DNA of 38,839 bases from a virus. The stretch is from positions 1 through 38,839 of IMG/VR virus record IMGVR_UViG_3300028840_001067; one strand, given 5' to 3'. A model generated the notes under the pieces. That model worked only from the letters and a program-made list of their open reading frames with translations. It was not told the origin of the DNA and made no database searches. The position numbers and the translations under genes are program-made. The stretch's first letter is position 1. Every line of letters starts with the position of its first letter. Below are positions 2,944 through 38,839 of the stretch, piece after piece.

Positions 2944-4941
2944 TTATTTCTCCATTAATGATGAATAATCAACACCTTCCATTCGGATAGGTGGTATTGC
3001 TGTTACTACAATCTCACCCCCATCTATGTCTACAACTTCTGCATCATATTGTGATGGTTGGAAATGTAAGTCACCCCCTCCCCAGTAGTCACCAGCTTGG
3101 TAGCCTACACCGAGAGGTACATTGAACTGTAAGTCATACACTGTGTCTAAGAATTCGTACACCCACCAAAGGAATGTCCACTTACTTATCTCGTATAGTT
3201 CTTCCAGTTCGTCTTCAGGACTCTCCGCTATCACTGAGTCATGCACAGTGTTAACTAAGAAAGTCTGCATTTCTTTACGCTTGATTATGTGCCATGTAGC
3301 AACGAGTGCTATAGGTATAATCTCTGCTGTTGCTAAGTTCTGTACGGGGTAGTTACAGATAGATGGGAAATCTTGACAGTACCCGCTATTAGAGACAGAA
3401 CAATTAGGATAATAGAATGTTATCCCTGTTGCGTGTGTTATCTCCTTGGCACGTAACACCTTAGCCTGCCACTGCTGCTGTGCTTTGGTGATGTCTGCAT
3501 ACTTCTCACGGAAGGCTGCGTAATATGCCATCTGTGAATCAGTACCATACTGCCCGCCATACAGAGGCTTAAACGTGTCAGCCTTAGCTAGTGTACGCCA
3601 GTCACCTCCCTTGGGTGCTGTCTTCTTCTGTGCTGCTACCTCATCCACAGTACAGTTATTGAGAACCGACGCAGTAAACGAATGCACATCGACACCGTCG
3701 ACGATGTCTTGGCATATTCGTACGTCTTGTCCAACGAAACCCGCAACTCTGAATTCGATTTGCGCACCGTCCATTTCAACAACCTTCCACCCCTTATTAC
3801 GTGCCGAGTATAAAGGCTTGTATTTCCTTGGGCTGTTTTGAAGCTGTATACTCTTGGCCTTCGGGTATCCTTTAAACTTGATTTTGATACCACTAGAAGA
3901 CAAGCGGTGTGTAACTGTTTGTGCTTGGTTGAACTGCGCGTAGAATAAACAATCCTCCTTCTCTGTAACTACTCCATAGAAGTAGTCTAGATTTTTAGTT
4001 AAGTCAGCATTCAGTTGAGCGAAAGTTTTCTTTAGTTGTAAGAACTTAGCTTGCTTCTTGTTCTTAGGTGTAAAGGAAAGTATCTCCTCCCCTGTTGGAC
4101 GGTGTTCTACTCCCTTCTTCTTTAGAGGTTTGAACTTGAGTACATCGTAGATAAACTCTTGCATCTGAGGGACAGACCTAGGGTTACGTCCGTCTATCAT
4201 TAGCATTAGTTCAGCTTCTACATCCGCCATATTCCTAGATGCCTGCTCATACTCCTTAACGACCTTCTCTTTATCTAGGTGTACACCACGTAGTTCTATA
4301 TCAGCTAACACTGGTGACAGTAAGCACCTGTTATAGAAGAGATGTAGTACATCACGCTCTACCATCTTATCCCGTAAGACTTTCCAAAGATTACGTGTCT
4401 GAAATATGTCAGACTTATTACGCTTCTCTAACAGAGAGCGAGGGATGTCACGTGGGCTAACACCACACCTCATTAGCTTATCTACTAGTGGGTCTTTAGT
4501 TACACCTAAGTGTTCCTTAGATAGTGTACCTAGTGCAAGTGCTCCCTTCTTACCAGCCTTTAAGTTACCAGTCAGTACATACTCAGCTAACATAGTGTCT
4601 GCTAGTAGGATACATGATGGGTCAAGGCCAGCACGGATAAGCCATTTGATATCGAACTTACCATTATGTGCCACAACAAAGTCAGCTTCATACATCTCTT
4701 GTATCAACTCAGCCATGTCGTGTATGCCGCCATAGATAAACTTCTCATCACCTCTACCACCATGACCTCGCACCCATGCAGCAGATACTAAATCATTCTG
4801 CTCCCATGTAGCGTCAGGGCTACGTTCATCACCGTTGGTGTCTGTCTCTAAGTCGAGTACTAAGTAGTTATCTGATAAGTAGATGTTAGGGTCTAGGTTA
4901 AGAAGGAAGTCAGGTAAGTAATCATAGTAATCCTTGCTCAT
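2944..4941 (-). CDS. Family A (T7-like) DNA polymerase with 3'-5' exonuclease domain
   Basis: 665 aa. Exo motifs LVLDLETD and VAHNGKFDIKWL. Pol motif A VVEMDGAQIEFRVAG, motif B RTLAKADTFKPLYGG, motif C VNTVHDSVIAE. Confidence 0.92.
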   Translation of the reverse strand: MSKDYYDYLPDFLLNLDPNIYLSDNYLVLDLETDTNGDERSPDATWEQNDLVSAAWVRGHGGRGDEKFIYGGIHDMAELIQEMYEADFVVAHNGKFDIKWLIRAGLDPSCILLADTMLAEYVLTGNLKAGKKGALALGTLSKEHLGVTKDPLVDKLMRCGVSPRDIPRSLLEKRNKSDIFQTRNLWKVLRDKMVERDVLHLFYNRCLLSPVLADIELRGVHLDKEKVVKEYEQASRNMADVEAELMLMIDGRNPRSVPQMQEFIYDVLKFKPLKKKGVEHRPTGEEILSFTPKNKKQAKFLQLKKTFAQLNADLTKNLDYFYGVVTEKEDCLFYAQFNQAQTVTHRLSSSGIKIKFKGYPKAKSIQLQNSPRKYKPLYSARNKGWKVVEMDGAQIEFRVAGFVGQDVRICQDIVDGVDVHSFTASVLNNCTVDEVAAQKKTAPKGGDWRTLAKADTFKPLYGGQYGTDSQMAYYAAFREKYADITKAQQQWQAKVLRAKEITHATGITFYYPNCSVSNSGYCQDFPSICNYPVQNLATAEIIPIALVATWHIIKRKEMQTFLVNTVHDSVIAESPEDELEELYEISKWTFLWWVYEFLDTVYDLQFNVPLGVGYQAGDYWGGGDLHFQPSQYDAEVVDIDGGEIVVTAIPPIRMEGVDYSSLMEK

Positions 4942-5293: not shown

Positions 5294-6523
5294 TTAATCT
5301 CCTGAATCTACACATGATTTAAATGGATTGATGAAAGCATACACACCATCATGTATACCACTGGCCTTGTTCTTACACACATTAAGATACAGTTGTCCAT
5401 GCTCTTTCATCTGCTCAGTACCCCCGACACCTATCATCACATCTGCTTGTGCTGCCACCTCACGGCGGGAACCAAACACATCTGATTGTTCAAGCTTAAC
5501 CTTAGCATCTATGGCCTTGCCTTTCATATCAGTAGATGCTGCTTGTGTTAGGGATACACCCACCACCTTAGTACGCTTGTATAACATACGTAGTTGATAC
5601 ATCACTTCCGCTTGGGCGTCATCGAATGCCCCCTTGCGTGGCGCTGGTGCTAGGTTACGGGCTTGGTCACATATAACTATGTCAGGTTTAAAGTGTTCTA
5701 TTAAACGCTCAACATCTGTTACAGATCCAGGACTTAACTCTTTGAATATTATGTTGTTATACCCCTCTTCCTTGGCCTGCTCAGTCCAGTACTCATCATC
5801 CCCTCTCACTATCTCAAGTGTCTGACCTACGAAGTTACATACGATACGCAGTACCATTCTATCTGCGGGGTCCTCATTACCTATGTAGAGTACAGTCTTA
5901 TCAGCATAGCCGTAGTCACCTGCTATCTGTATAGCAACCGCAGATTTACCACGGTTAACACCACCGAACACAACAACGTGGTCGCCCGCCATCATGTTAA
6001 ACACAATGTCACCTAGTAGATTAGGTAGGATAGATAGGCTGTCCCCTTCATCTAATGTACGTGTTAGCTCTGATACAGTGGCCCCTTGATATACATCGAA
6101 TAAGTCATCCTTAGTCTCTTCTGATTGAATGCCTAGTTCATGTACTTCTTTGTACTCCACTGCTATGGTTGCTGCCTTAGCACTATCGCCGCCAGCTAGA
6201 GCGGCAGTCATGTCTGCACCGAGGCGCTTGAGTCTCTGCTCTGTTAGGTAGGTGATTAAGTTAGAGGGGCTGGCCTCTGGTAGGTTCTCGATAACAACAC
6301 TTAACTTCTCGTAGGACAAGGGTTTACGATTCTGGATAGTACCTAGTAGTAGCTTGATGTCTACACTAGTGGCCTTGCTCTCTGCTTTGTAATAGTTACC
6401 GATGTGTTTGAACAGTTCCATTCCATTAGGTGAAAGGTCGGTGGTAGCTTCCAGCTTAACTACCACCTCGTATGCCTCACGGCTAGCGATACATGCAGCT
6501 ACAATAGCTGGTTCACTTTCCAT
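5294..6523 (-). CDS. Replicative DNA helicase (T7 gp4 C-terminal / DnaB-like RecA-fold)
   Basis: About 409 aa. Walker A is FGGVNRGKSAVAIQ, Walker B-like is PDIVICDQ. ATG 6523 overlaps the primase stop (TGATG). Confidence 0.78.
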   Translation of the reverse strand: MESEPAIVAACIASREAYEVVVKLEATTDLSPNGMELFKHIGNYYKAESKATSVDIKLLLGTIQNRKPLSYEKLSVVIENLPEASPSNLITYLTEQRLKRLGADMTAALAGGDSAKAATIAVEYKEVHELGIQSEETKDDLFDVYQGATVSELTRTLDEGDSLSILPNLLGDIVFNMMAGDHVVVFGGVNRGKSAVAIQIAGDYGYADKTVLYIGNEDPADRMVLRIVCNFVGQTLEIVRGDDEYWTEQAKEEGYNNIIFKELSPGSVTDVERLIEHFKPDIVICDQARNLAPAPRKGAFDDAQAEVMYQLRMLYKRTKVVGVSLTQAASTDMKGKAIDAKVKLEQSDVFGSRREVAAQADVMIGVGGTEQMKEHGQLYLNVCKNKASGIHDGVYAFINPFKSCVDSGD

Positions 6524-7389
6524 CAATCAATCCTTAGCTGCCTCTTGATAGTGACAACGAGTTTATCCATATCAGCATCACTCATATCTTTTGGGTCCTC
6601 ATCATACAGAGGTACGAATGTGATAGAGTGAAAGTATAGGCCATAAGTGTAGGCCATCTTTGCTGCCTTAGCTGTAGCATCAGCATCTAGCACTAAACAT
6701 AGTCTCCGCTTACCAGCTCTCACTAGTTCCATTAACGTAGATTCTTGTATGCTTGTACCTGATAGAGCACAGCTAGGTAGATATTCATTACAACGTAAAG
6801 CAGAGGGGAAGTCTTCGAACACTGCGACATACTCCTCGAACTGTGCCTTGTGTGGTGTCATCATACACGTGAGACGGTAGTCACTAGGTAATGTATTGTA
6901 ATGAGCTTTAGCTTTTGGTCCCCTTAGATTACGACTGTTAAGTACAAGGTCATCATACCTCCGTGCAAGATAGCCCTCGTGTCTACCCGTCATAGCTTTG
7001 ATAGGGAAGAGTACACACTCTGTAGTCTCTGACCACATCACACCATTAATCATCAACATCTCTTCATCCATCCACCAGAAATAAGCTAGTAACCATTTGA
7101 GCACATCATTAGGTAATGGCTCTGCATTCAGCGCATTAACATGGCACTTAGGTTTGCGTAGTTTACTAGTGGTAGGACGGTAGCCCATCTGTCCGACTCT
7201 GCCGGATAAGCTGCACTTAGCACGGTAGCATTTATATGTCAGACCTTCAGGACTACACCAGATTAGAAGGGAGCGTTCACTTGTGCCACCACCGTTACAG
7301 ACTGGGCATACTAAGTGTTCGCTCCTATCTCCAATTGCTAAGTCAGTTGATAAGTCTAGGATGTTCTGGTCATAGTCGTTAGACCTCAC
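6523..7389 (-). CDS. DNA primase (zinc ribbon plus TOPRIM)
   Basis: 288 aa. Zinc motif CPVCNGGG...YKCYRAKC. TOPRIM-like E (VAVFEDFPSA) and DxD (LVLDADATAKA). GTG start overlaps the upstream stop (GTGA). Confidence 0.75.
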   Translation of the reverse strand: MRSNDYDQNILDLSTDLAIGDRSEHLVCPVCNGGGTSERSLLIWCSPEGLTYKCYRAKCSLSGRVGQMGYRPTTSKLRKPKCHVNALNAEPLPNDVLKWLLAYFWWMDEEMLMINGVMWSETTECVLFPIKAMTGRHEGYLARRYDDLVLNSRNLRGPKAKAHYNTLPSDYRLTCMMTPHKAQFEEYVAVFEDFPSALRCNEYLPSCALSGTSIQESTLMELVRAGKRRLCLVLDADATAKAAKMAYTYGLYFHSITFVPLYDEDPKDMSDADMDKLVVTIKRQLRID

Positions 7390-7687: not shown

Positions 7688-8443
7688 TTAACGTAGGTCT
7701 ATCCCTGTCAGTTCAAAGAATACTTCAGCATCATAGTTAGGTAAGGCTTTCACCTTAGCCTTATCCCTATTGGATGCCTTAGCATAACTATCCAGCCAGC
7801 TCTGTTTATAGTCATCACCTAAATTAAAGTAAAAGAAATTAGGGATGTCGGATGCTTCCCATACGCTGCGTAGGCAGGGTTTATTAAACACCTGAATAAT
7901 CTCATCCCGCTGTGTATTCAAGTAGCCACTGCTCCCGTTAGTACTATTCCAGTCTCCGGAGTTATAGTCTCCGGAGTTATGGCGGCCGGAGTTACGGTTT
8001 CCGGAGTTATAGTCTCCGGAGTTATGGCGGCCGGAGTTATAGTCTCCGGAGTTACGGTCTCCGGAGTTAGAGTGTCCGGAGTTACGGTTTCCGGAGTTAG
8101 AGTGGCCGGAGTTAGAGTGTCCGGAGTTATAGCGGCCGGAGACTAGAGCCTTCACTTCGTCATCAGTTAAAAAGCGTATGATGCGTAGACGGTTGGTACA
8201 CCCTTTGTGTTGGTGTGGTTGCTCAAACTCAACGTCACCTAATACCTCCACCTCGGCATATAGGTTCTCTGTGATATCCTTTTTTACTGGGTAGTACTGT
8301 AAAGTTAAGACTAGCTCTTTGCAGAAGTGGAAGCCTCGTTTACATAGAATAGGTAATTCCTTTAATTCGTAGGTCTTACCCTCTTCAAATTTAAAACCAC
8401 GGCACGTCCCGTCTTTGTTCAAGGCTTTATAATAAGTAGTCAT
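7688..8443 (-). CDS. Early protein with N-terminal YKA..DG.CRGF...GFHFC domain and a central (NSGxx)12-14 pentapeptide-like repeat
   Basis: 251 aa. MTTYYKALNKDGTCRGFKFEEGKTYE...CKRGFHFC resembles a widespread phage/bacterial domain that I recall as DUF7666 (from memory, unverified). It is followed by NSGHS NSGHS NSGNR NSGHS NSGDR NSGDY NSGRH .... Confidence 0.75.
   Translation of the reverse strand: MTTYYKALNKDGTCRGFKFEEGKTYELKELPILCKRGFHFCKELVLTLQYYPVKKDITENLYAEVEVLGDVEFEQPHQHKGCTNRLRIIRFLTDDEVKALVSGRYNSGHSNSGHSNSGNRNSGHSNSGDRNSGDYNSGRHNSGDYNSGNRNSGRHNSGDYNSGDWNSTNGSSGYLNTQRDEIIQVFNKPCLRSVWEASDIPNFFYFNLGDDYKQSWLDSYAKASNRDKAKVKALPNYDAEVFFELTGIDLR
7950..8150. repeat. 15-bp tandem repeat (about 13 units, core CCGGAGTT) inside the CDS
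   Basis: CCGGAGTT recurs at 7956, 7971, 7986 ... 8121 with exact 15-nt period, and a last degenerate unit (CCGGAGAC) lies at 8136. It encodes the NSGxx repeats on the minus strand. Confidence 0.9.
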
Positions 8444-12130: not shown

Positions 12131-12274
12131 ACCCCCTAGGTATTAAAAAAACCCACAAGATAAACAAAAATCAAAAACTCAGCCTTTAGCCTAGCCAACG
12201 CTTTAGATAGTAACTGAATCTGTTGATAGTGTGTTCTCTGACACAGTTCTGACATTTATTGACACGGAATTGAC

Positions 12275-12304
12275 TTGACAAGATTCATAATCACCAACTA
12301 GTAT
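12275..12304 (+). promoter_or_regulatory. Sigma70-like promoter reading into hairpin array 1 and terS
   Basis: TTGACA (12275-12280), 18-nt spacer, TAGTAT (12299-12304). It lies within a cluster of TTGAC boxes. Confidence 0.35.
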
Positions 12305-12338
12305 TAGTAGTGGGAAGGGGGAAGAAGGGGGATGGGCA

Positions 12339-12644
12339 GTAGGCAGCAGCCTACATCTAGATGCCCTCTACTCCAATAGAGGGCTATATATTAAAACTTC
12401 TTACGGGAAGTTTAGCTATACTACCTCCTTAAAAGGTAGTATTAAGGATAGTATAGAATCTCTCTTAAAAAGAGATTCATATAGTATAAGTAATATAGAA
12501 GTTCTTATCAGGAGAACTTCTTATATAGTAGCTGTTCTCTAACCCTACCCGAGAACAGCATATAGTAGTAGATACTCTCTTACCTTATCATCGAGAGTAT
12601 CTTATATAATAAATTCTTTAGGGAAAGAATTTATATAGTATAAG
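12339..12644 (+). repeat. Hairpin array 1: nine different stem-loops separated by ATATAGTA-type linkers
   Basis: Perfect inverted repeats at 12339-54, 12363-84, 12394-413, 12418-42, 12456-78, 12497-521, 12531-59, 12570-602 and 12609-34. There is no ORF. Confidence 0.9.
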
Positions 12645-12788
12645 GACTTAAAAATTTATGAAGAACTGTACATTCTATGAACTTTGCATTCGAATTAAAT
12701 GCAATGGGCATAAGCTAAACAGCATGCTAAAAGCTGCTGGTAACTCCGTTCTCTTCGAGACGTGAGTTTATTTGCATAGAAGAAGGTA

Positions 12789-12917: not shown

Positions 12918-13415
12918 GTGACTAACATTAATCATTGGAATAAAGGTGGTAGACCTACTAAGTACAAGAGTGAGTATATAGAACAGGGCTATAAGTTAGC
13001 TGTTCTTGGTGCTACTATTCCACAAATAGCCGATTTCTTTGAAGTATCTCACGAGACTATCTATGAGTGGATGAGAAAGCATCCCAAGTTTTCTGACGCC
13101 ATAAATAAAGGTAGAACTCAGATGGATATGGAAGTAGCTGAAAGACTCCTACATAAAGCTCAAGGGTACTCTCATAAAGAGACTAAAGTATTCTACGATA
13201 GTAAGACAGGGCAGATAGTTGAGCATGAGGTAGATAAACATTACGCTCCTGATACCACGGCGGCTATCTTCTGGTTGAAGAATAGACAGCCTGAGCTTTG
13301 GAGAGATAAGCAGGAAGTAGAGAGTAAGAATTTACATGCTGTAGTGAATCCAGAGGACGCTAAGTGGACCATTGAGTTTATCAATGCTGAGGACAAGGAA
13401 GAGAAGGATGACTAA
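12918..13415 (+). CDS. terS: Terminase small subunit
   Basis: 165 aa, GTG start. GGRPTKYKSEY...IPQIADFFEVSHETIYEWMRKHPKFSDAINKG is an HTH, and the ...AAIFWLKNRQPELWRDK motif is typical of HTH-type small terminases. It is the first gene of the late arm. Confidence 0.8.
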   Translation: MTNINHWNKGGRPTKYKSEYIEQGYKLAVLGATIPQIADFFEVSHETIYEWMRKHPKFSDAINKGRTQMDMEVAERLLHKAQGYSHKETKVFYDSKTGQIVEHEVDKHYAPDTTAAIFWLKNRQPELWRDKQEVESKNLHAVVNPEDAKWTIEFINAEDKEEKDD

Positions 13416-18511: not shown

Positions 18512-18725
18512 TTATCAGCAAGTATTCAATACCCATGTAGGTAGAAGAGTACTTGAAGATATCATGAGTTACTGTCACCTATTAGAGCCTCTAGTAGGCT
18601 CCATAGACACAAATAGTATCATCATTAGAGAAGCACGAAGAGATGTAGCTATCACGATACTACAGAAGTTAAATTGGAACGAAAGAGATTTTCTAAACAC
18701 CGTAGAAGGAGACGATAATGTTTAA
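18456..18725 (+). CDS. Hypothetical head-module protein
   Basis: 89 aa. YQQVFNTHVGRRVLEDIMSYCH resembles a small conserved podovirus head-module family (recalled, unverified). The start is uncertain, given a 56-nt overlap with the upstream ORF. Confidence 0.5.
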   Translation: MRQKNQLSQQELTKQLKRDYQQVFNTHVGRRVLEDIMSYCHLLEPLVGSIDTNSIIIREARRDVAITILQKLNWNERDFLNTVEGDDNV

Positions 18726-19542
18726 ATTAAATCACAAGCTAATGGAAGAAGAGTTAGGTGCAGAAGGTACAGTAATTTCAGGCGGTGAAGCATCTGGTTC
18801 GTGGTATGACTCCTTTGCTGAAGATATACGTTCTAACCAGAATGTTACTAAGTTTAGCAGTGCTGAAGAGTTGGCTAAGAGTTATATCAACGCCCAGAGC
18901 CTGATAGGTCGTGATAAGATCCCAATGCCTGTTACAGATGAGGACTGGTCAAATACCTACGCTCGTCTAGGACGCCCCGAAGATGCAGCGGGGTATGAAT
19001 TCAACGTCCCTGAAGGCGTTCAGGTTAACGAGGAACGTCAAGGTGCATTCCGTGAATTGGCGTATCAGATTGGCCTATCGCAGAAACAAGCCGAAGCTTT
19101 AATGAACTTTGACTTTGAGTCACAGAACGCTGCTCTAGATGCTTACACTACTAGCCAACATCAAGCCACGGAAGAGGCTATTGGTTCATTACAGAAGGAA
19201 TGGGGTAATGCCTTTGAACAGAATGTCACTATCGCTAACCGTGCTTTATCTGAGTTTGCCTCTGAGTCTGATATAGAGTTTCTACAAGAAGCTGAAATTA
19301 ACGGGGTTAAGTTAGGCGACCACCCAGTACTCATTAAACTATTTAACAACGTAGGTAAAGGTATGATGGAGAGCGGTAAGCTAGAGGGTAAAGGCTCTGA
19401 CTTAGTGATGACACCTGATGAAGTGCAAGCTAAACAAGCACAGCTTATGGCGCACCCAGCTTACACTGACCGTAATCACCCAGAGCATAAAGTGATTAAT
19501 GGAGAAGTACAGAAACTGTTTAAACTTCAGTATCCTGACTAA
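18718..19542 (+). CDS. Scaffolding protein
   Basis: 274 aa, acidic and helical, between portal and capsid as in T7 gp9. GGAG lies upstream. Confidence 0.65.
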   Translation: MFKLNHKLMEEELGAEGTVISGGEASGSWYDSFAEDIRSNQNVTKFSSAEELAKSYINAQSLIGRDKIPMPVTDEDWSNTYARLGRPEDAAGYEFNVPEGVQVNEERQGAFRELAYQIGLSQKQAEALMNFDFESQNAALDAYTTSQHQATEEAIGSLQKEWGNAFEQNVTIANRALSEFASESDIEFLQEAEINGVKLGDHPVLIKLFNNVGKGMMESGKLEGKGSDLVMTPDEVQAKQAQLMAHPAYTDRNHPEHKVINGEVQKLFKLQYPD

Positions 19543-19558
19543 TCAGGATAGGAAGAGA

Positions 19559-19583
19559 AGAGCCCCTTAAGTGGGGCTTTTTA
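19559..19583 (+). terminator. Rho-independent terminator after the scaffold gene
   Basis: AGCCCC-ttaagt-GGGGCT followed by TTTTT. Confidence 0.75.
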
Positions 19584-19630
19584 CTGCATGCTGTACACGA
19601 GAATGTACAGGCTGATTTAAAGTTAATTTC

Positions 19631-19659
19631 TTGACAAGGTTCCTAAACAGAACTACATT
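19631..19659 (+). promoter_or_regulatory. Sigma70-like promoter reading into hairpin array 2
   Basis: TTGACA (19631-36), 17-nt spacer, TACATT (19654-59). Confidence 0.4.
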
Positions 19660-19669
19660 TTAAATAACA

Positions 19670-19987
19670 CTCTATAGAGGAACACACTAAGGGGGTGTGT
19701 GTTCCGATAGATATCCCTAGCAAGGGATATAGTAGTAGATATCCTCAGAAGAGGATATAAGTAATGTTCTCTCCCCAAAAGAGAACATAGTAAGTACAGT
19801 ATAGAATCTCTTTTTAAGAGAGATTCATATAGTAGTAGATACTCTCTTACCTTATCATCGAGAGTATCTTATATAATAAATTCTTTAGGGAAAGAATTTA
19901 TATAGTATAAGTAATATAGAAGTTCTCCTGATAAGAACTTCTATATAGTAGCTGTTCTCTAACCCTACCCGAGAACAGCATATAGTA
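19670..19987 (+). repeat. Hairpin array 2: nine stem-loops with ATAGTA-type linkers; five modules shared with array 1
   Basis: Inverted repeats at 19679-705, 19711-30, 19739-58, 19764-88, 19804-26, 19837-69, 19876-901, 19918-42 and 19951-79. 19826-19911 is identical to 12559-12644 (86 bp). Confidence 0.9.
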
Positions 19988-20023
19988 TACACGTATAAGA
20001 ATTGACATAGAATTGACGTACTC

Positions 20024-20052
20024 TTGACAGTACGTTAACACACGTGTAGTTT
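20024..20052 (+). promoter_or_regulatory. Sigma70-like promoter for the capsid operon (downstream of array 2)
   Basis: TTGACA (20024-29), 17-nt spacer, TAGTTT (20047-52). The -35 sits in the loop of hairpin 20016-20035. Confidence 0.35.
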
Positions 20053-20291
20053 CCTACCTTAGATGCTCAAGAAAAGTTTAACTTATAAAAAATATTTGAA
20101 TTATGATTACACTGCTGCTACTATTAATCATGACGTGCATATGTGTTGATATGCTCGTTTAAAACATATCAGATAACTCCTCAGGAGCCTGAACCTAACT
20201 TGACTGATAATCTAGTGTAGGGAACGGTTACCCGATAACCCCGAAGCTGGAACAAAGATAAACTACTTTTGTTTAACTAAGGGGACATTAA

Positions 20292-21158
20292 ATGTCTAAT
20301 CAAATTACTACTGCATTTGTTAATCAGTTTGGTGCAAACATCGACCTACTGTCACAGCAAATGGATTCTCGTTTCATGGGTAAAGTTCGTATGGAAAGCC
20401 AAAATAGTGAGTTTGGTTTCTACGAGCAAATAGGCCCTACTGCCGCTGTAGAGCGTACCTCACGTCACTCTGATACACCACGTGTTGACACTCCACACGC
20501 ACGCCGTGCTGTCACTCTTCGTACATTCGAATGGTCTGATTTAATCGACCACGCTGATAAAGTGAAGATGTTGATTGACCCAACTTCAAGCTATGCTAAA
20601 TCCGCCATGATGGCGATGAACCGTAGTCGCGATGATATCATCATAGAAGCTGCTCTTGGTTCTGCTAAGACTGGTAAGAATGGTGACACTCTTGTAGCTC
20701 TTCCTGCTTCTCAGAAGATTGCAGCAGCTGCGGGGGGTCTAACTTTAGATAAGCTACGCGAAGCAGCAGAAATACTAAACGCTAATGACGTTGATGAAAG
20801 TATCAACCGTTACATGGCTGTTACTTCTAAACAGTTAACTGACCTATTGAACATCACTCAGGTTACTGACGCTGACTTTAACACTGTTAAAGCTTTGGTA
20901 GAGGGTAAGGTCGACACATTCATGGGCTTTAAGTTCCTACGCTGTGAGCGTCTAACTACAGATGGTTCTGGTGACCGCCAAGTTATTGCATGGGCTGAAG
21001 ATGGTCTGTTGCTAGCTCAAGGTAACAACATGAACAAAACTCGTATCACTGAGCGTGATGACAAGTCTTACTCTGTGCAAGTGTTCCGTTCTGAAATGTT
21101 CGGTGCTACTCGTATGGAAGAAGAAAAAGTTGTTGAAATCGCTTGTGTTGAGTCTTAA
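20292..21158 (+). CDS. Major capsid protein
   Basis: 288 aa. AAGGGGA SD, a long structured leader, position after the scaffold gene, and a terminator two genes downstream. Confidence 0.75.
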   Translation: MSNQITTAFVNQFGANIDLLSQQMDSRFMGKVRMESQNSEFGFYEQIGPTAAVERTSRHSDTPRVDTPHARRAVTLRTFEWSDLIDHADKVKMLIDPTSSYAKSAMMAMNRSRDDIIIEAALGSAKTGKNGDTLVALPASQKIAAAAGGLTLDKLREAAEILNANDVDESINRYMAVTSKQLTDLLNITQVTDADFNTVKALVEGKVDTFMGFKFLRCERLTTDGSGDRQVIAWAEDGLLLAQGNNMNKTRITERDDKSYSVQVFRSEMFGATRMEEEKVVEIACVES

Positions 21159-21174
21159 TAGAGAGGAATAACGA

Positions 21175-21678
21175 ATGCCAGTTGTAAACCTAAAAGGCTC
21201 AAAAGCTATTACCAACCTAGATGCCGACCCAGTAGTGCAGCCAGAAGCAGGTGTTGCTGGTGGTGCTTTACGTGTGTGGGTAGAAACTGTAGAAGTTGGC
21301 GCGACTGACTCTGCTACATCTACTTACTTGATGGCGCGTCTACCCTCTAACGCTGTTATCTTGGGGGCTTCTAAACTTTATGGTGATGACCTAGCTTCGG
21401 CTGGTGCACCTACCTTAGATATTGGTATCTTCAACTTAGACGGTAAGTCTATCATCACTGATGATGACGACGCTCTAAACGATGGTATCGACGCAGCAAG
21501 TGCTATAGACGCTTATGTCGTTAAAGACAAAGCTAACTATGGTAAGAAGTTGTGGGAACATATCAACGGGCAAACTGAAGACCCTAAAGGTGAGTACGAT
21601 ATTAAAATCACCCTTAAGGATGCTGACGTAAACGTTGGTGGCACTCTAACTCTAGAGTTGTTCTACGCGCTAGACTAA
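21175..21678 (+). CDS. Hypothetical structural protein co-expressed with the capsid (decoration or minor capsid candidate)
   Basis: 167 aa. GAGAGGA SD. It lies between the capsid gene and a strong terminator. Confidence 0.65.
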   Translation: MPVVNLKGSKAITNLDADPVVQPEAGVAGGALRVWVETVEVGATDSATSTYLMARLPSNAVILGASKLYGDDLASAGAPTLDIGIFNLDGKSIITDDDDALNDGIDAASAIDAYVVKDKANYGKKLWEHINGQTEDPKGEYDIKITLKDADVNVGGTLTLELFYALD

Positions 21679-21696
21679 ACTGGCCGTAAAGCTAAT

Positions 21697-21719
21697 GGGG
21701 GCCTAGCGTCCCCTTTTTT
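21697..21719 (+). terminator. Rho-independent terminator after the capsid pair
   Basis: GGGGGC-ctagc-GTCCCC (one G.U pair) followed by TTTTTT. Confidence 0.75.
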
Positions 21720-21735
21720 CTAGGAGCACACCTAT

Positions 21736-22299
21736 ATGGCCTCAGAAGTAGATATATGTAACCTAGCTTTAAATAAGATAGGCCAAAATACAATCATCTC
21801 CTTAACAGAAGATTCTAAAGCTGCCCGTATATGTAACCTATTCTATGCAGACACTCGTGATAGTCTTCTAAGACAGCACCCATGGAATTTCGCAGTTAAA
21901 CGAGTGGAGCTGGCTAAACTCACTACAACACCTGTATTTGGTTTTGATAACGAATTCCAACTGCCCTCTGACTGTCTACGTGTCATGTACACAAACCTGA
22001 AGTTCCCGCAAGATAAATTCAGAATAGAAGGTAAGAAACTTTTAGCTGACTCCGATTCTATTAAGATTGAGTATATAAGCCGTGTTGAGGATACTACTCA
22101 GTTTGATGCATTGTTTGTTGATGCTTTGTGGATGTCTATAGCCTCTCGAATTGCATATAACATATCAGACAATAACACCCTAGTTAGTTTCTTAGATAAT
22201 AAAGTAAAAGAAGTGATAAGACATGCCAAGAGTATTGATGGCCAAGAGGGTATACCCTACCCAATAGACGCTGACGACTGGTTGAACTCGAGGTTATAA
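21736..22299 (+). CDS. Head-tail adaptor / tail tubular protein A (T7 gp11 position)
   Basis: 187 aa (T7 gp11 is 196 aa). The N-terminus ...VDICNLALNKIGQNTI is common in podoviral adaptor proteins. Gene order supports the call. Confidence 0.5.
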   Translation: MASEVDICNLALNKIGQNTIISLTEDSKAARICNLFYADTRDSLLRQHPWNFAVKRVELAKLTTTPVFGFDNEFQLPSDCLRVMYTNLKFPQDKFRIEGKKLLADSDSIKIEYISRVEDTTQFDALFVDALWMSIASRIAYNISDNNTLVSFLDNKVKEVIRHAKSIDGQEGIPYPIDADDWLNSRL

Positions 22300-38190: not shown

Positions 38191-38723
38191 ACTTTCCCTC
38201 CATCCTCTTGTCTAGCTTTACGCTGGTGGTCAGGACGTATAAGGTTATACTCCATCTTCTCTATGATGATGCGTTGAATAGGGAACCCTCTATCCTCTGC
38301 TGCTTCATAGGCCATCACAACTAAGCGTTGTAATTGATAAGCACTCACTTCATTACCACGATGTAGCCACACATCACCAAGTAACATAAACATCGAAGCT
38401 AGACGCTCACTCATTAGCTGTTGGTATTTGTAATGAGTCTCTAACTTATCAGGCCATTCAGCTCCTAAGATACTTAGTGTATCCAGTCCACGTATCACTA
38501 CATCCGCCAGCTCAGTAGCTATCATTGGGTATTGCGGTAGCTTATCGTCCATCAATCCCCTACGTAATCCAGTAGTAGCTTCTCCTAACTCCTCACCGAG
38601 TAGGATGACATCTTGTGCAAATGTGCGGGGCTTATCTCTCCACCCCATGTACAAGTTCTGTTGTGCTACTGTCGGTTGTAAGTCCTTTAAGAAAGCAATC
38701 AATTCCATACTTAATCTTCCCAT
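38184..38723 (-). CDS. mazG: MazG-like nucleoside triphosphate pyrophosphohydrolase
   Basis: 179 aa (174 aa from ATG 38708). LLGEELGEATTGLRRG...ATELADVVIRGL matches the MazG EExxE...E..D helix pattern. The start lies in the terminal overlap. Confidence 0.7.
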   Translation of the reverse strand: MGRLSMELIAFLKDLQPTVAQQNLYMGWRDKPRTFAQDVILLGEELGEATTGLRRGLMDDKLPQYPMIATELADVVIRGLDTLSILGAEWPDKLETHYKYQQLMSERLASMFMLLGDVWLHRGNEVSAYQLQRLVVMAYEAAEDRGFPIQRIIIEKMEYNLIRPDHQRKARQEDGGKVW

Positions 38724-38839
38724 TTGTTTTTTAAGGTTAACGTCTCACCTTCAGTTAGTGGTTTAAAATCACCCTGCATCCACGTACAACTCAACTGGCC
38801 CATTGTATACCTAGTGTCGTTAGACCATAGTACAAACCC
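38696..38839. repeat. Terminal overlap copy 2: identical to 1-144
   Basis: Same 144 bases as the window start. Confidence 0.95.

Follow-up and report, generated by a model that had tools for sequence, protein, structure and literature searches.

According to our analysis, the window (IMG/VR virus record IMGVR_UViG_3300028840_001067, the whole stretch of 38,839 nucleotides [nt] that was analyzed) carries two noncoding, paralogous arrays of perfect Watson-Crick hairpins, one before terS and the other before the major capsid gene. With an exact overlap of 144 nt between its ends (1-144 = 38696-38839), the window represents a complete genome of 38,695 bp that is circularly closed or, alternatively, terminally redundant, and its G+C content is 42.9%. 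It is the genome of a podovirus remotely related to HTVC010P; its major capsid protein shares 55% identity with the counterpart in Pelagibacter phage HTVC010P, and phages of the HTVC010P type are its nearest cultured relatives. The genome is organized in two divergent arms, the minus arm with replication genes and the plus arm with packaging and structural genes, and it is compact apart from the spacers that hold the arrays.

Each array consists of nine perfect hairpins, located at 12339-12634 (array 1) and 19679-19979 (array 2), and is built of cassettes of 20-33 nt in which an AT-rich ATATAGTA-like linker, always on the plus strand, is combined with a stem and a free loop of 4-13 nt. The stems are 6-13 bp long, and 8-13 bp in all hairpins except the 6-bp GTAGGC one. 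Every one of the ~18 hairpins in the window is perfect, without visible decaying copies, and their stems comprise 12 different sequences, which are confined to these two loci. The hairpins, their linkers, and the plus-arm genes around them are as follows.

12339-12354: hairpin private to array 1, GTAGGC-AGCA-GCCTAC
12363-12384, 12394-12413, and 12418-12442: private hairpins Q2, Q3, and Q4 of array 1
12456-12478: module A of array 1, stem GAATCTCT, loop CTTAAAA, in the same orientation in all array 1 contigs
12497-12521: module B of array 1, stem AGAAGTTCT, loop TATCAGG
12531-12559: module C of array 1, stem GCTGTTCTC, 11-nt loop TAACCCTACCC
12570-12602: module D of array 1, stem AGATACTCTC, 13-nt loop
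12609-12634: module E of array 1, stem ATAAATTCTT(T), loop (T)AGGG(A)
12479, 12523, 12560, and 12633, plus strand: exact ATATAGTA linkers of array 1, with the variant ATATAATA at 12604
12918-13415, plus arm: terS; terL and the portal gene are on the same arm
18718-19542, plus arm: scaffold/protease-like gene
19679-19705, 19711-19730, 19739-19758, and 19764-19788: private hairpins P1, P2, P3, and P4 of array 2
19804-19826: module A' of array 2, stem as in A, loop TTTTAAG
19837-19869 and 19876-19901: modules D and E of array 2, inside the 86/86 block described below
19914-19946: module B' of array 2, 13-bp stem ATATAGAAGTTCT, loop CCTGATA, exact reverse complement of 12493-12521
19951-19979: module C of array 2, identical to that of array 1
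19727, 19827, 19900, 19943, and 19980, plus strand: exact ATATAGTA linkers of array 2, with variants at 19785 and 19871
20292-21158, plus arm: major capsid gene; the tail genes are also on this arm

All array coordinates, stems, and loops of the original prediction that were checked proved correct. Five modules are common to both arrays and follow each other as A-B-C-D-E in array 1 and as A'-D-E-B'-C in array 2, as had been claimed, and the identity between the arrays ends at the ATATAGTA linkers or within 4 nt of them. The D-E block is the same at 86/86 positions (12559-12644 = 19826-19911), and C together with both of its linkers at 46/46 (12522-12567 = 19942-19987). The loops of A and A', like those of B and B', are exact reverse complements of each other on unchanged stems, and comparison of the arrays in both orientations returned the inverted matches at 23/23 and 29/29 nt, so that the shared block and the reversed loops noted at the outset both hold. 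Nine of the 11 exact copies of ATATAGTA in the 38.8-kb window fall in the arrays, all of them on the plus strand. Array 2 contains 8 perfect hairpins with stems of at least 8 bp per 400 nt, and the array 1 of relatives up to 6, against a background of 0.32 per kb in 2.36 Mb of other fetched loci; unrelated loci reach at most 4, except one REP-like tandem repeat with 6. The fold z-scores are -8.7 and -6.3 (RNA, plus strand) and -11.2 (DNA, minus strand).

Near-identical copies of this genome (99.0-100%) are present in the JGI assemblies 3300017963, 3300017971, 3300017991, and 3300018080, in the ENA assemblies ERZ27256773, ERZ27256783, ERZ27256796, and ERZ27256798, and in Logan run SRR6963591; the comparison covers at least 8 independent assemblies and few haplotypes, all as assembled contigs only. 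The order P1-P4-A-D-E-B-C of array 2 recurs in L201, L203, L207, and L200, and the order Q2-Q4-A-B-C-D-E of array 1 in L208, L228, L369, and L370. The polymorphism of order and orientation that had been anticipated for related contigs does exist: the loops of A, B, and E are each found in both orientations among near-identical contigs, and one contig has an extra A. The states are given below, where A+ is CTTAAAA and A- TTTTAAG, B+ is TATCAGG and B- CCTGATA, and E+ is TAGGGA and E- TCCCTA.

Array 1: window, B+ E+; L208, B- E-; L228, B+ E-
Array 1, further contigs: L231/L370, B-; L369, B+; L210, E+; L202, B-; L209, E-
Array 2: window, L201, L207, and L200, A-; L203, A+

Across the 719 nt located 5' of terS, L208 is identical to the window except for two flipped loops, and L203 is identical to it across the 704 nt located 5' of the capsid gene except for the loop of A. 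The bulged T that lies 3' of B is on the same side in both loop orientations, and therefore the inverted segment ends inside the perfect 9-bp stem of B; the inverted segments end within the stem and exclude the linkers. A flipped state of C (11-nt loop) or D (13-nt loop) was never seen among the contigs compared.

Module content varies as well. L209 reads A-B-C-A-D-E, with one extra A module between two linkers. The C-to-A junction in this contig is located at the contig end and has only 8 nt in common with any known context, which rules out a k-mer chimera and places the junction in the reads; L369, from the same sample, has C-D. In L202/L367 (ERZ27256796 k141_2126547), the left-arm genes and Q2-Q4-A-B-C are joined straight to the capsid promoter, while L199/L204/L211 (Ga0180433_10024297) read (B)-C-D-E-B-C-capsid. 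The junctions in L202 and L199/L204 could be either the products expected of recombination between the arrays or chimeric paths through repeats of 86-98 nt. The arrays are direct repeats 7.3 kb apart, and exchange between them would delete the segment from terS to the scaffold gene. Several contigs (L199, L205, L209, L210, and L369-L371) end inside the arrays; we did not use these ends as a sign of heterogeneity within samples, since they are mostly due to the inter-array repeats at the k of the assemblers.

Relatives carry the following at these sites.

L318/L319: capsid 89% identical in protein and 82% in nucleotide sequence; A*-B*-C before the capsid promoter
L317 and L320: capsid 92%; diverged arrays at both sites
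L316/L365: capsid 91%; both spacers with TAAGAT(A/T) direct repeats and few hairpins
L321: capsid 87%; 1080-nt spacer without array
L322: capsid 83%; 195-nt spacer without array
L002-L006: capsid 66-82%; region 5' of the capsid gene without array
L341, prophage of an Inquilinaceae metagenome-assembled genome: capsid 52%; REP-like tandem hairpins 5' of the capsid gene

In L318, the stems A, B, and C are identical to those of the window (54/54), against 82% identity for the capsid gene and 85% for the leader; at this local divergence, the chance of zero change in 54 nt is P ~1e-4. The loops (CTCTAAA and CACGATA) and the linkers of L318 differ from those of the window. The modules of L317/L320 read TAAATCCT-CTTAAAA-AGGATTTA, GTTCTCT-CTTAA-AGAGAAC, and TGTTGTTCTC-TACAxCACAC-GAGAACAACA, with linkers of the AGTATAG / ACAGTA type. 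GCTCTCT/AGAGAGC in L320 corresponds to GTTCTCT/AGAGAAC in L317, a two-sided change, and further changes of this kind are GCTGTTCTC versus TGTTGTTCTC and GAATCTCT versus TAAATCCT. All stem differences between homologous modules of the window, L317, L318, and L320 are two-sided, and no one-sided G-T intermediate was seen among them. The array before terS in L317 has the GTTCTCT module in common with the other array of that phage, and it also holds GGAATAAC-ACCCCCAA-GTTATTCC, the loop of which resembles the reverse complement of the P1 loop of the window. The proposal that selection acts on stem plus linker rather than on the loop agrees with these data as far as the stems are concerned, which are kept (54/54, two-sided changes) while the loops vary, but less so for the linkers, which are less conserved than the stems in L317 and L320.

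Spacer length and content vary widely among the relatives, from 195 to 1080 nt. The arrays are a positional feature of one subclade with fast turnover, and are dispensable for this type of phage, since L316/L365, L321, L322, and L002-L006 lack them. In L316 (3851-4515) and L365 (2346-3000; ERR2843957), whose capsid and terS identities are 91% and 85%, TAAGAT(A/T) direct repeats on the plus strand are present instead of the arrays; the two control regions appear to share whichever short repeat a given phage uses. In the distant prophage L341 (1390-1780; JBQLZQ010000041.1), three tandem units of ~150 nt lie 5' of the capsid gene, with the hairpins GTCCCGCA-CTTGA-TGCGGGAC and GCCCCGGA-TCAAG-TCCGGGGC, whose two loops are reverse complements of each other.

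Wider searches returned little. GenBank phages gave zero nucleotide matches to either array region or to 19000-22000, and no close prophage was found in the genome collection searched. Relatives identified through terS (at most 55% identity) are without arrays, which we ascribe to terS being mosaic. The patterns of modules C and D with free loops matched only the window phage among viral contigs, and 22 of 25 matches in metagenome contigs were chance palindromes. A scan of viral contigs for three spaced linkers (ATATAGTA-N15-45, three times) gave at least 118 matches, and those inspected were TA-rich low-complexity or chance matches, without a heterogeneous hairpin array. The same linker pattern caught a different phage group, namely, the unrelated viral contigs L083, L128, L149, L154, L172, and L101, in which TA-rich tracts of the (TATATAGTA)n type are located directly 3' of a TTGACA promoter and a conserved gene.

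The pairing within the arrays is peculiar. G-U pairs account for 3-4% of the predicted pairs, versus 13.5% in random windows of the genome, and the two strands fold nearly equally (-104.8 versus -100.3 kcal/mol for array 1 and -113.1 versus -111.1 kcal/mol for array 2). The four loop-proximal bases of the 5' arms are pyrimidines at 44/48 positions (p = 1.5e-9), and those of the 3' arms are purines. This polarity cannot be altered by inversion, so it points to a common descent of the cassettes, probably from one ancestral unit by tandem duplication. Duplication followed by divergence had also been part of the original prediction, and it is in line both with the polarity and with the existence of the stem families P2/P3 (ATATCC-) and P4/C (GTTCTC).

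Some readings of individual hairpins were considered by eye and dropped: anticodon-loop mimicry, since only A+ fits; a CsrA-type GGA sponge, since GGA is present in few loops and destroyed by the flip; and dimeric operators, since the spacing of the half-sites ranges from 4 to 13 nt. The Q4 hairpin holds ACCTCCTTA (12423-12431), which matches the anti-Shine-Dalgarno 3' end of 16S rRNA, and the P1 loop ACTAAGGGG (19686-19694) repeats the ribosome-binding site of the capsid gene (20276-20284); both are post hoc observations compatible with chance.

As for the mechanism of variation, we think that the cassettes would move, duplicate, and be swapped between the arrays via recombination at 8-12 nt of linker homology, and that replication template switching across the inverted repeat is the likely cause of loop inversion inside perfect stems. 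The same template switching would also copy one arm onto the other, by which stems stay perfect and stem changes become two-sided. Template switching makes perfect stems, fixes pairing, and inverts loops (PMC8794818), and both the homogenization of inverted-repeat arms and the inversion of the spacer have been described (PMC8604942). Loop inversion and cassette exchange would both still be active, because near-identical genomes differ in the orientation of A, B, and E and, once, in module content. We infer with good support that loop inversion and the upkeep of perfect stems are brought about by template switching, together with recombination or conversion at linker homology.

Hairpin-mediated inversion or template switching had been proposed for the loop flips from the beginning, and the confinement of loop reversal to the stem is in favor of it, but the polymorphism is equally explicable by conversion between the arrays. 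According to this alternative, A, B, and E each flipped once long ago, with an ancestral array 1 of A+B+E- and an ancestral array 2 of A-B-E+, and the present variants are short gene-conversion tracts. For A, B, and E alike, the alternative loop state seen in the polymorphic array is indeed the one fixed in the other array; the 86/86 identity of D-E between the window arrays fits recent conversion; and exchange between the arrays is evident from the differing module order and from the hybrid junctions of L202 and L199. However, the two B- copies on one contig of ERZ27256783 (L201 and L208) differ by an inserted or deleted T directly 3' of the stem, L203 retains array-2-type flanks around A+, the conversion tracts could reach no further than 9 to ~20 nt from the loop, and at least three true inversions are needed anyway. 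We deem conversion of ancient flips a plausible explanation, although on balance we lean slightly against it. Flipping and conversion both use the hairpin stems or the linkers as substrate.

The loop inversions resemble the template-switch events reported previously (Monttinen & Loytynoja 2022, PMC8794818; PMC8604942), in that the loops of A, B, and E become exact reverse complements of equal length, the events are bounded by perfect inverted repeats with more than 700 nt of flanking sequence intact (L208 and L203 versus the window), and the arms are homogenized. Those papers deal with scattered events in rRNA, miRNA, yeast genes, and plastomes, whereas the hairpins polymorphic here are three within a single small locus, seen simultaneously among near-identical viral genomes, and are part of linker-separated arrays that also shuffle. 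Small inversions of hairpin loops are known in chloroplast DNA.

REP, BIME, and REPIN elements are clusters of palindromes with short conserved linkers in transcribed intergenic DNA, which are mosaic, stabilize mRNA, and act as rearrangement hotspots. The arrays share with them the clustering of short palindromes with conserved linker motifs, the mosaic make-up, and the rearrangement. REPs, however, are one conserved family with hundreds of dispersed copies in alternating orientation that are mobilized by RAYT transposases, whereas here the stems are all different, the linkers run one way, and two loci of one phage are involved. RAYT (TnpA-REP, HUH Y1) had no match in the open reading frames (ORFs) searched with Pfam/PHROGs, a set that included only part of the small ORFs.

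The closest phage precedent for the shuffling and for mini-circles is the PeSL of T4-type phages (PMC2839356, PMC4122927), where stem-loop cassettes are repeated in hyperplastic regions, are shuffled by recombination, and give deletion or mini-circle products; the junction of L202, a possible chimera, is of the type expected from a PeSL-like exchange. A PeSL, instead, comprises a full sigma-70 promoter and a terminator stem-loop and flanks genes (PMC2839356, PMC4122927), while the cassettes described here stand head to tail without genes between them. No -35/-10 pair was found inside the modules on the plus strand, where the linker is a -10-like hexamer only, and the cassettes are followed by ATATAGTA and not by the T-run of PeSL or intrinsic terminators, with only Q2 having a weak T-rich tail.

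Late mRNAs of T7-type phages contain RNase III R sites and the gene 10 leader stem-loop, which affect mRNA processing and stability. Array 2 is similarly located between the scaffold and capsid genes and adjoins a terminator and a strong promoter, both predicted here. The T7 sites are single irregular helices of at least ~20 bp with defined sequence, whereas array 2 has nine short perfect stems with interchangeable loops; stems of 6-13 bp do not reach the ~20 bp or more of double-stranded RNA of an RNase III site. The flip/flop hairpins of parvoviruses and the poxvirus telomeres are terminal, and inversion is the obligatory outcome of hairpin-primed replication or telomere resolution. As in those viruses, two reverse-complement orientations of the unpaired part coexist in the virus population, but the hairpins in question are internal, small, and numerous. 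CRISPR arrays show a comparable regular alternation of short palindromic and nonpalindromic segments in an array that is, in our case, predicted to be transcribed, but the architecture is inverted, with varying palindromes and constant linkers and without cas genes or identical repeats. Near-identical tandem repeats as in CRISPR or type III antitoxins were not found, the repeated part being the 8-nt linker, and both identifications were dropped, since the units are not identical. In place of attC sites (55-140 nt, R''/L''-L'/R' cores, extrahelical bases, IntI), the arrays present perfect palindromes of 20-33 nt, and no tyrosine recombinase was found with Pfam/PHROGs. The Rfam search of the arrays gave no match at the gathering threshold and only chance-level ones when relaxed (E 0.2-1), and the tRNA/tmRNA search found none. 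The arrays lack the defining features of REP/BIME, PeSL, intrinsic terminators, RNase III sites, attC, CRISPR, and all Rfam families. By analogy, their recombination behavior can be likened to that of BIME/PeSL mosaics, and their loop inversions to known template-switch events.

The predicted signals around the arrays, on which the functional interpretation depends, are listed next.

12239-12304, plus strand: five phased TGAC(A) boxes and promoter-like TTGACA-18-TAGTAT (12275-12304), directly 5' of array 1; consensus match only
12312-12336, plus strand: G-run tract GGGAAGGGGGAAGAAGGGGGATGGG with four runs of G (G-quadruplex-type motif), on the nontemplate strand where transcription of array 1 is predicted to start
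19561-19585, plus strand: terminator-like hairpin AGCCCC-TTAAGT-GGGGCT with a T-run, after the scaffold/protease gene; read from sequence
19631-19659, plus strand: promoter-like TTGACA-17-TACATT, directly 5' of array 2, kept in L317 and L320; consensus match
20003-20052, plus strand: three phased TTGAC boxes and promoter-like TTGACA-17-TAGTTT (20024-20052), between array 2 and the capsid leader
20185-20291, plus strand: 5' leader of the capsid gene, conserved, outside the arrays and an internal contrast to them

Exact TTGACA-N16-18-TAnnnT is present in intergenic plus-strand DNA at only three sites (12275, 19631, and 20024), all of which flank the arrays; the promoter-like sites end 35 nt before array 1 and 20 nt before array 2. 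The terminator-like hairpin precedes the promoter-like site of array 2 and is kept in relatives with compensatory changes. The scaffold terminator and the promoters that had been described around array 2 were located as matches, but as consensus matches only. Since promoter-like sites lie directly upstream of the terS-side and the capsid-side array, both arrays are probably positioned as the 5' part of late transcripts.

We assign a probability of about one half to the reading that the arrays are BIME/PeSL-like cassettes, diversified by template switching and linker recombination, which would act through structure alone in the leaders of late genes. The arrays, each beginning 10-35 nt past a promoter-like site, would be transcribed as the 5' part of the late transcripts of the terS operon and the capsid gene, and their stable hairpins and AU-rich, -10-like (TATAGT) linkers would protect or process the 5' ends of late mRNA and/or slow RNA polymerase. 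If only structure matters, neither the sequence of the loops nor the order or number of the modules would affect the function. Such a function is weakly suggested by the promoter-proximal position, the uniform orientation of the linkers, the indifference to loop, order, and number, and the independent repeats of L341 at the corresponding site.

Several points weigh against it. Perfect stems are not proof of function or of folding in vivo, because template switching can keep stems perfect without selection (PMC8794818); in vivo folding had been suggested from the reversed loops. Gene conversion between the arrays may explain the loop polymorphism without repeated flipping, and the 54/54 stem identity of L318 may reflect a recent lateral transfer of the A-B-C block. 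The promoters of the arrays are consensus matches only. The scarcity of G-U pairs and the equal folding of the strands are the signature of a DNA palindrome, which fits a role at the DNA level or mutational upkeep at least as well. Finally, arrays are absent from L316/L365 (91%), L321 (87%), L322 (83%), and L002-L006.

A role at the DNA level, with hairpins forming on single-stranded or negatively supercoiled DNA, can be envisaged in two versions: an origin of replication based on promoter-coupled unwinding or an R-loop, in which the displaced nontemplate strand is kept open by the G-run tract and the hairpins, or a packaging or ejection signal adjoining terS. In T4, oriF and oriG combine a promoter with an unwinding element 3' of it; SPP1 possesses two origins, and palindromes abound in the injection-stop region of T5. 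Besides the strict Watson-Crick pairing, the scarce G-U pairs, and the equal folding of the strands, this role is favored by the position of array 1, which lies in the divergent control region at the minimum of cumulative GC skew, directly after a promoter-like site and the tract of four G-runs (12312-12336) and 270 nt 5' of terS; loop inversions, moreover, imply that hairpins are exposed in replication. The skew, however, tracks gene orientation and is thus no guide to an origin; initiator iterons are absent, and the stems differ from module to module. Hairpins formed by the transcribed RNA would be in competition with an R-loop, there are close relatives with no array at either site, and array 2 is far from terS. 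We hold a DNA-level role to be unlikely.

That the arrays have no function at all, and are a mutational by-product in which template switching creates and keeps palindromes while duplication and ectopic recombination expand them in tolerant spacers, is likewise improbable. Template switching alone can yield perfect stems, two-sided changes, and loop inversions (PMC8794818), the arrays are limited to one subclade with fast turnover and spacers of 195 to 1080 nt, and no protein or RNA family linked to them was found in the searches run. It is difficult to reconcile with ~18 hairpins in the window, and more in relatives, that are all perfect with no decaying copies seen, with stems kept at 54/54 against a background of 82-85% identity, with the reappearance of arrays, made of other modules, at these same two sites close to promoters, and with a phage genome that is otherwise compact.

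We consider it rather doubtful that the arrays represent an undescribed class of phage element, whose cassettes would work solely by extrusion as DNA or RNA hairpins beside late promoters, with flip-flop and shuffling as intrinsic, high-rate properties. A hairpin-stabilized R-loop origin, a polymerase timer, and a decoy for a structure-sensing host factor are possible roles for such an element. If this were true, the locus would naturally report, in vivo, on the extrusion of hairpins and on template switching within a virus population.

It is very unlikely that the cassettes are mobile palindromic elements or recombination sites like REP/BIME, MITEs, or attC, moved by an HUH or tyrosine enzyme that cuts the linker. 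The breakpoints do fall at conserved 8-nt linkers, the extra A of L209 stands between two of them, and the linker contains GTAG, which we take to be like the head of a REP. The ORFs searched, however, include no transposase, RAYT, or integrase, their matches being replication proteins, exonucleases, an HNH endonuclease, and structural proteins; the stems are heterogeneous rather than one family, copies are present at two loci only, inversions stop within the stem and exclude the linkers, and the scan for three spaced linkers in viral contigs gave only TA-rich low-complexity tracts. The objection that arrays or flips arise from assembly or library preparation (collapsed or chimeric repeats, or fold-back chimeras at palindromes) can be set aside almost entirely, despite the many contigs that end within the arrays and the hybrid paths of L199/L204 and L202 through 86-98-nt repeats that may be chimeras, given that each of the two module orders is found repeatedly across independent assemblies from JGI, ENA (k141), and Logan, that fold-back artifacts are few per read and unlikely to reach the consensus, and that a flip makes new flank-arm-loop k-mers, which, at any k larger than the perfect palindrome, have no reverse-complement counterpart in the unflipped allele, so that, reasoning from the sequence, a de Bruijn graph cannot invent it.

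Hairpin-loop inversion by template switching and mosaic palindromic clusters (BIME, PeSL) both have precedents. Although the mutational mechanism has been described before, the architecture of the arrays is unusual, and so is a flip polymorphism that involves several hairpins and is seen in independent metagenomes. The combination is undescribed: ~18 perfect hairpins in two linker-punctuated arrays that head two predicted late transcription units, with exchange between the arrays and three loops in both orientations. If the flips are recurrent, the locus is a direct measure of the frequency at which folding and mis-templating of short inverted repeats take place while a virus replicates. If functional, the arrays exemplify selection that acts only on pairing and lets sequence, order, and loop vary, and they would point to a new control of late gene expression or replication in the abundant HTVC010P-like podoviruses of marine and saline habitats. 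If they have no function, template switching builds and maintains much perfect secondary structure without selection, which calls for caution in predicting the structure of viral RNA.

The 5' leader of the capsid gene behaves differently. It contains GATAAC boxes, CCTGAACCT, and TCTAGTGTAGGGAACGG...CCGATAACCCCGAAGCTGGA, remains conserved even in relatives whose capsid identity is only 66%, and is without an Rfam match. Its predicted helix has G-U pairs and, across ten relatives, one-sided changes along with some compensatory ones. Judged from these changes, the leader, unlike the arrays, behaves as a selected RNA helix would, and it may be a cis-regulatory RNA. The TGAC(A) boxes near the arrays, phased at ~10-12 bp (five at 12239-12281 and three at 20003-20029), may be overlapping -35 elements or regulator sites.

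The remaining features of the window were annotated as follows.

2944-4941, minus arm: PolA
5294-6526, minus arm: DnaB-like helicase
12658-12765, plus strand: small ORF of 35 amino acids (MKNCTFYELCIRIKCNGHKLNSMLKAAG...), directly 3' of array 1

The minus arm also encodes a primase, exonucleases, and an HNH endonuclease according to Pfam/PHROGs. The N terminus of the small ORF is conserved with a 69-amino-acid ORF of the relative L365 (2696-2905); in L228, a 10-nt insertion or deletion at 12741 alters its C terminus, and paired single-nucleotide polymorphisms (SNPs) at 12668/12670 turn CT into YA. On the minus strand, ~17 copies of a 15-nt tandem repeat (7906-8160, in ORF 7688-8443) encode the pentapeptide-repeat domain of a DUF7666 protein. 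The terL genes of the close relatives L317 (1496-3910) and L365 (4469 onward) contain an intein (804 amino acids, Intein_splicing and Terminase_3), while the terL of the window (494 amino acids) is without one. Strains are also mosaic elsewhere: a D12-class DNA methyltransferase gene replaces the small ORFs of 10365-11000 in L202/L367 and L370 as compared with the window. A cluster of SNPs at 16432-16444 in L200 was considered as an inversion in a coding region and rejected, because it is a divergent patch and not a reverse complement. A divergent patch of 50 nt is likewise located between strains at the 3' end of the scaffold gene (window 19461-19513 versus L200/L201).

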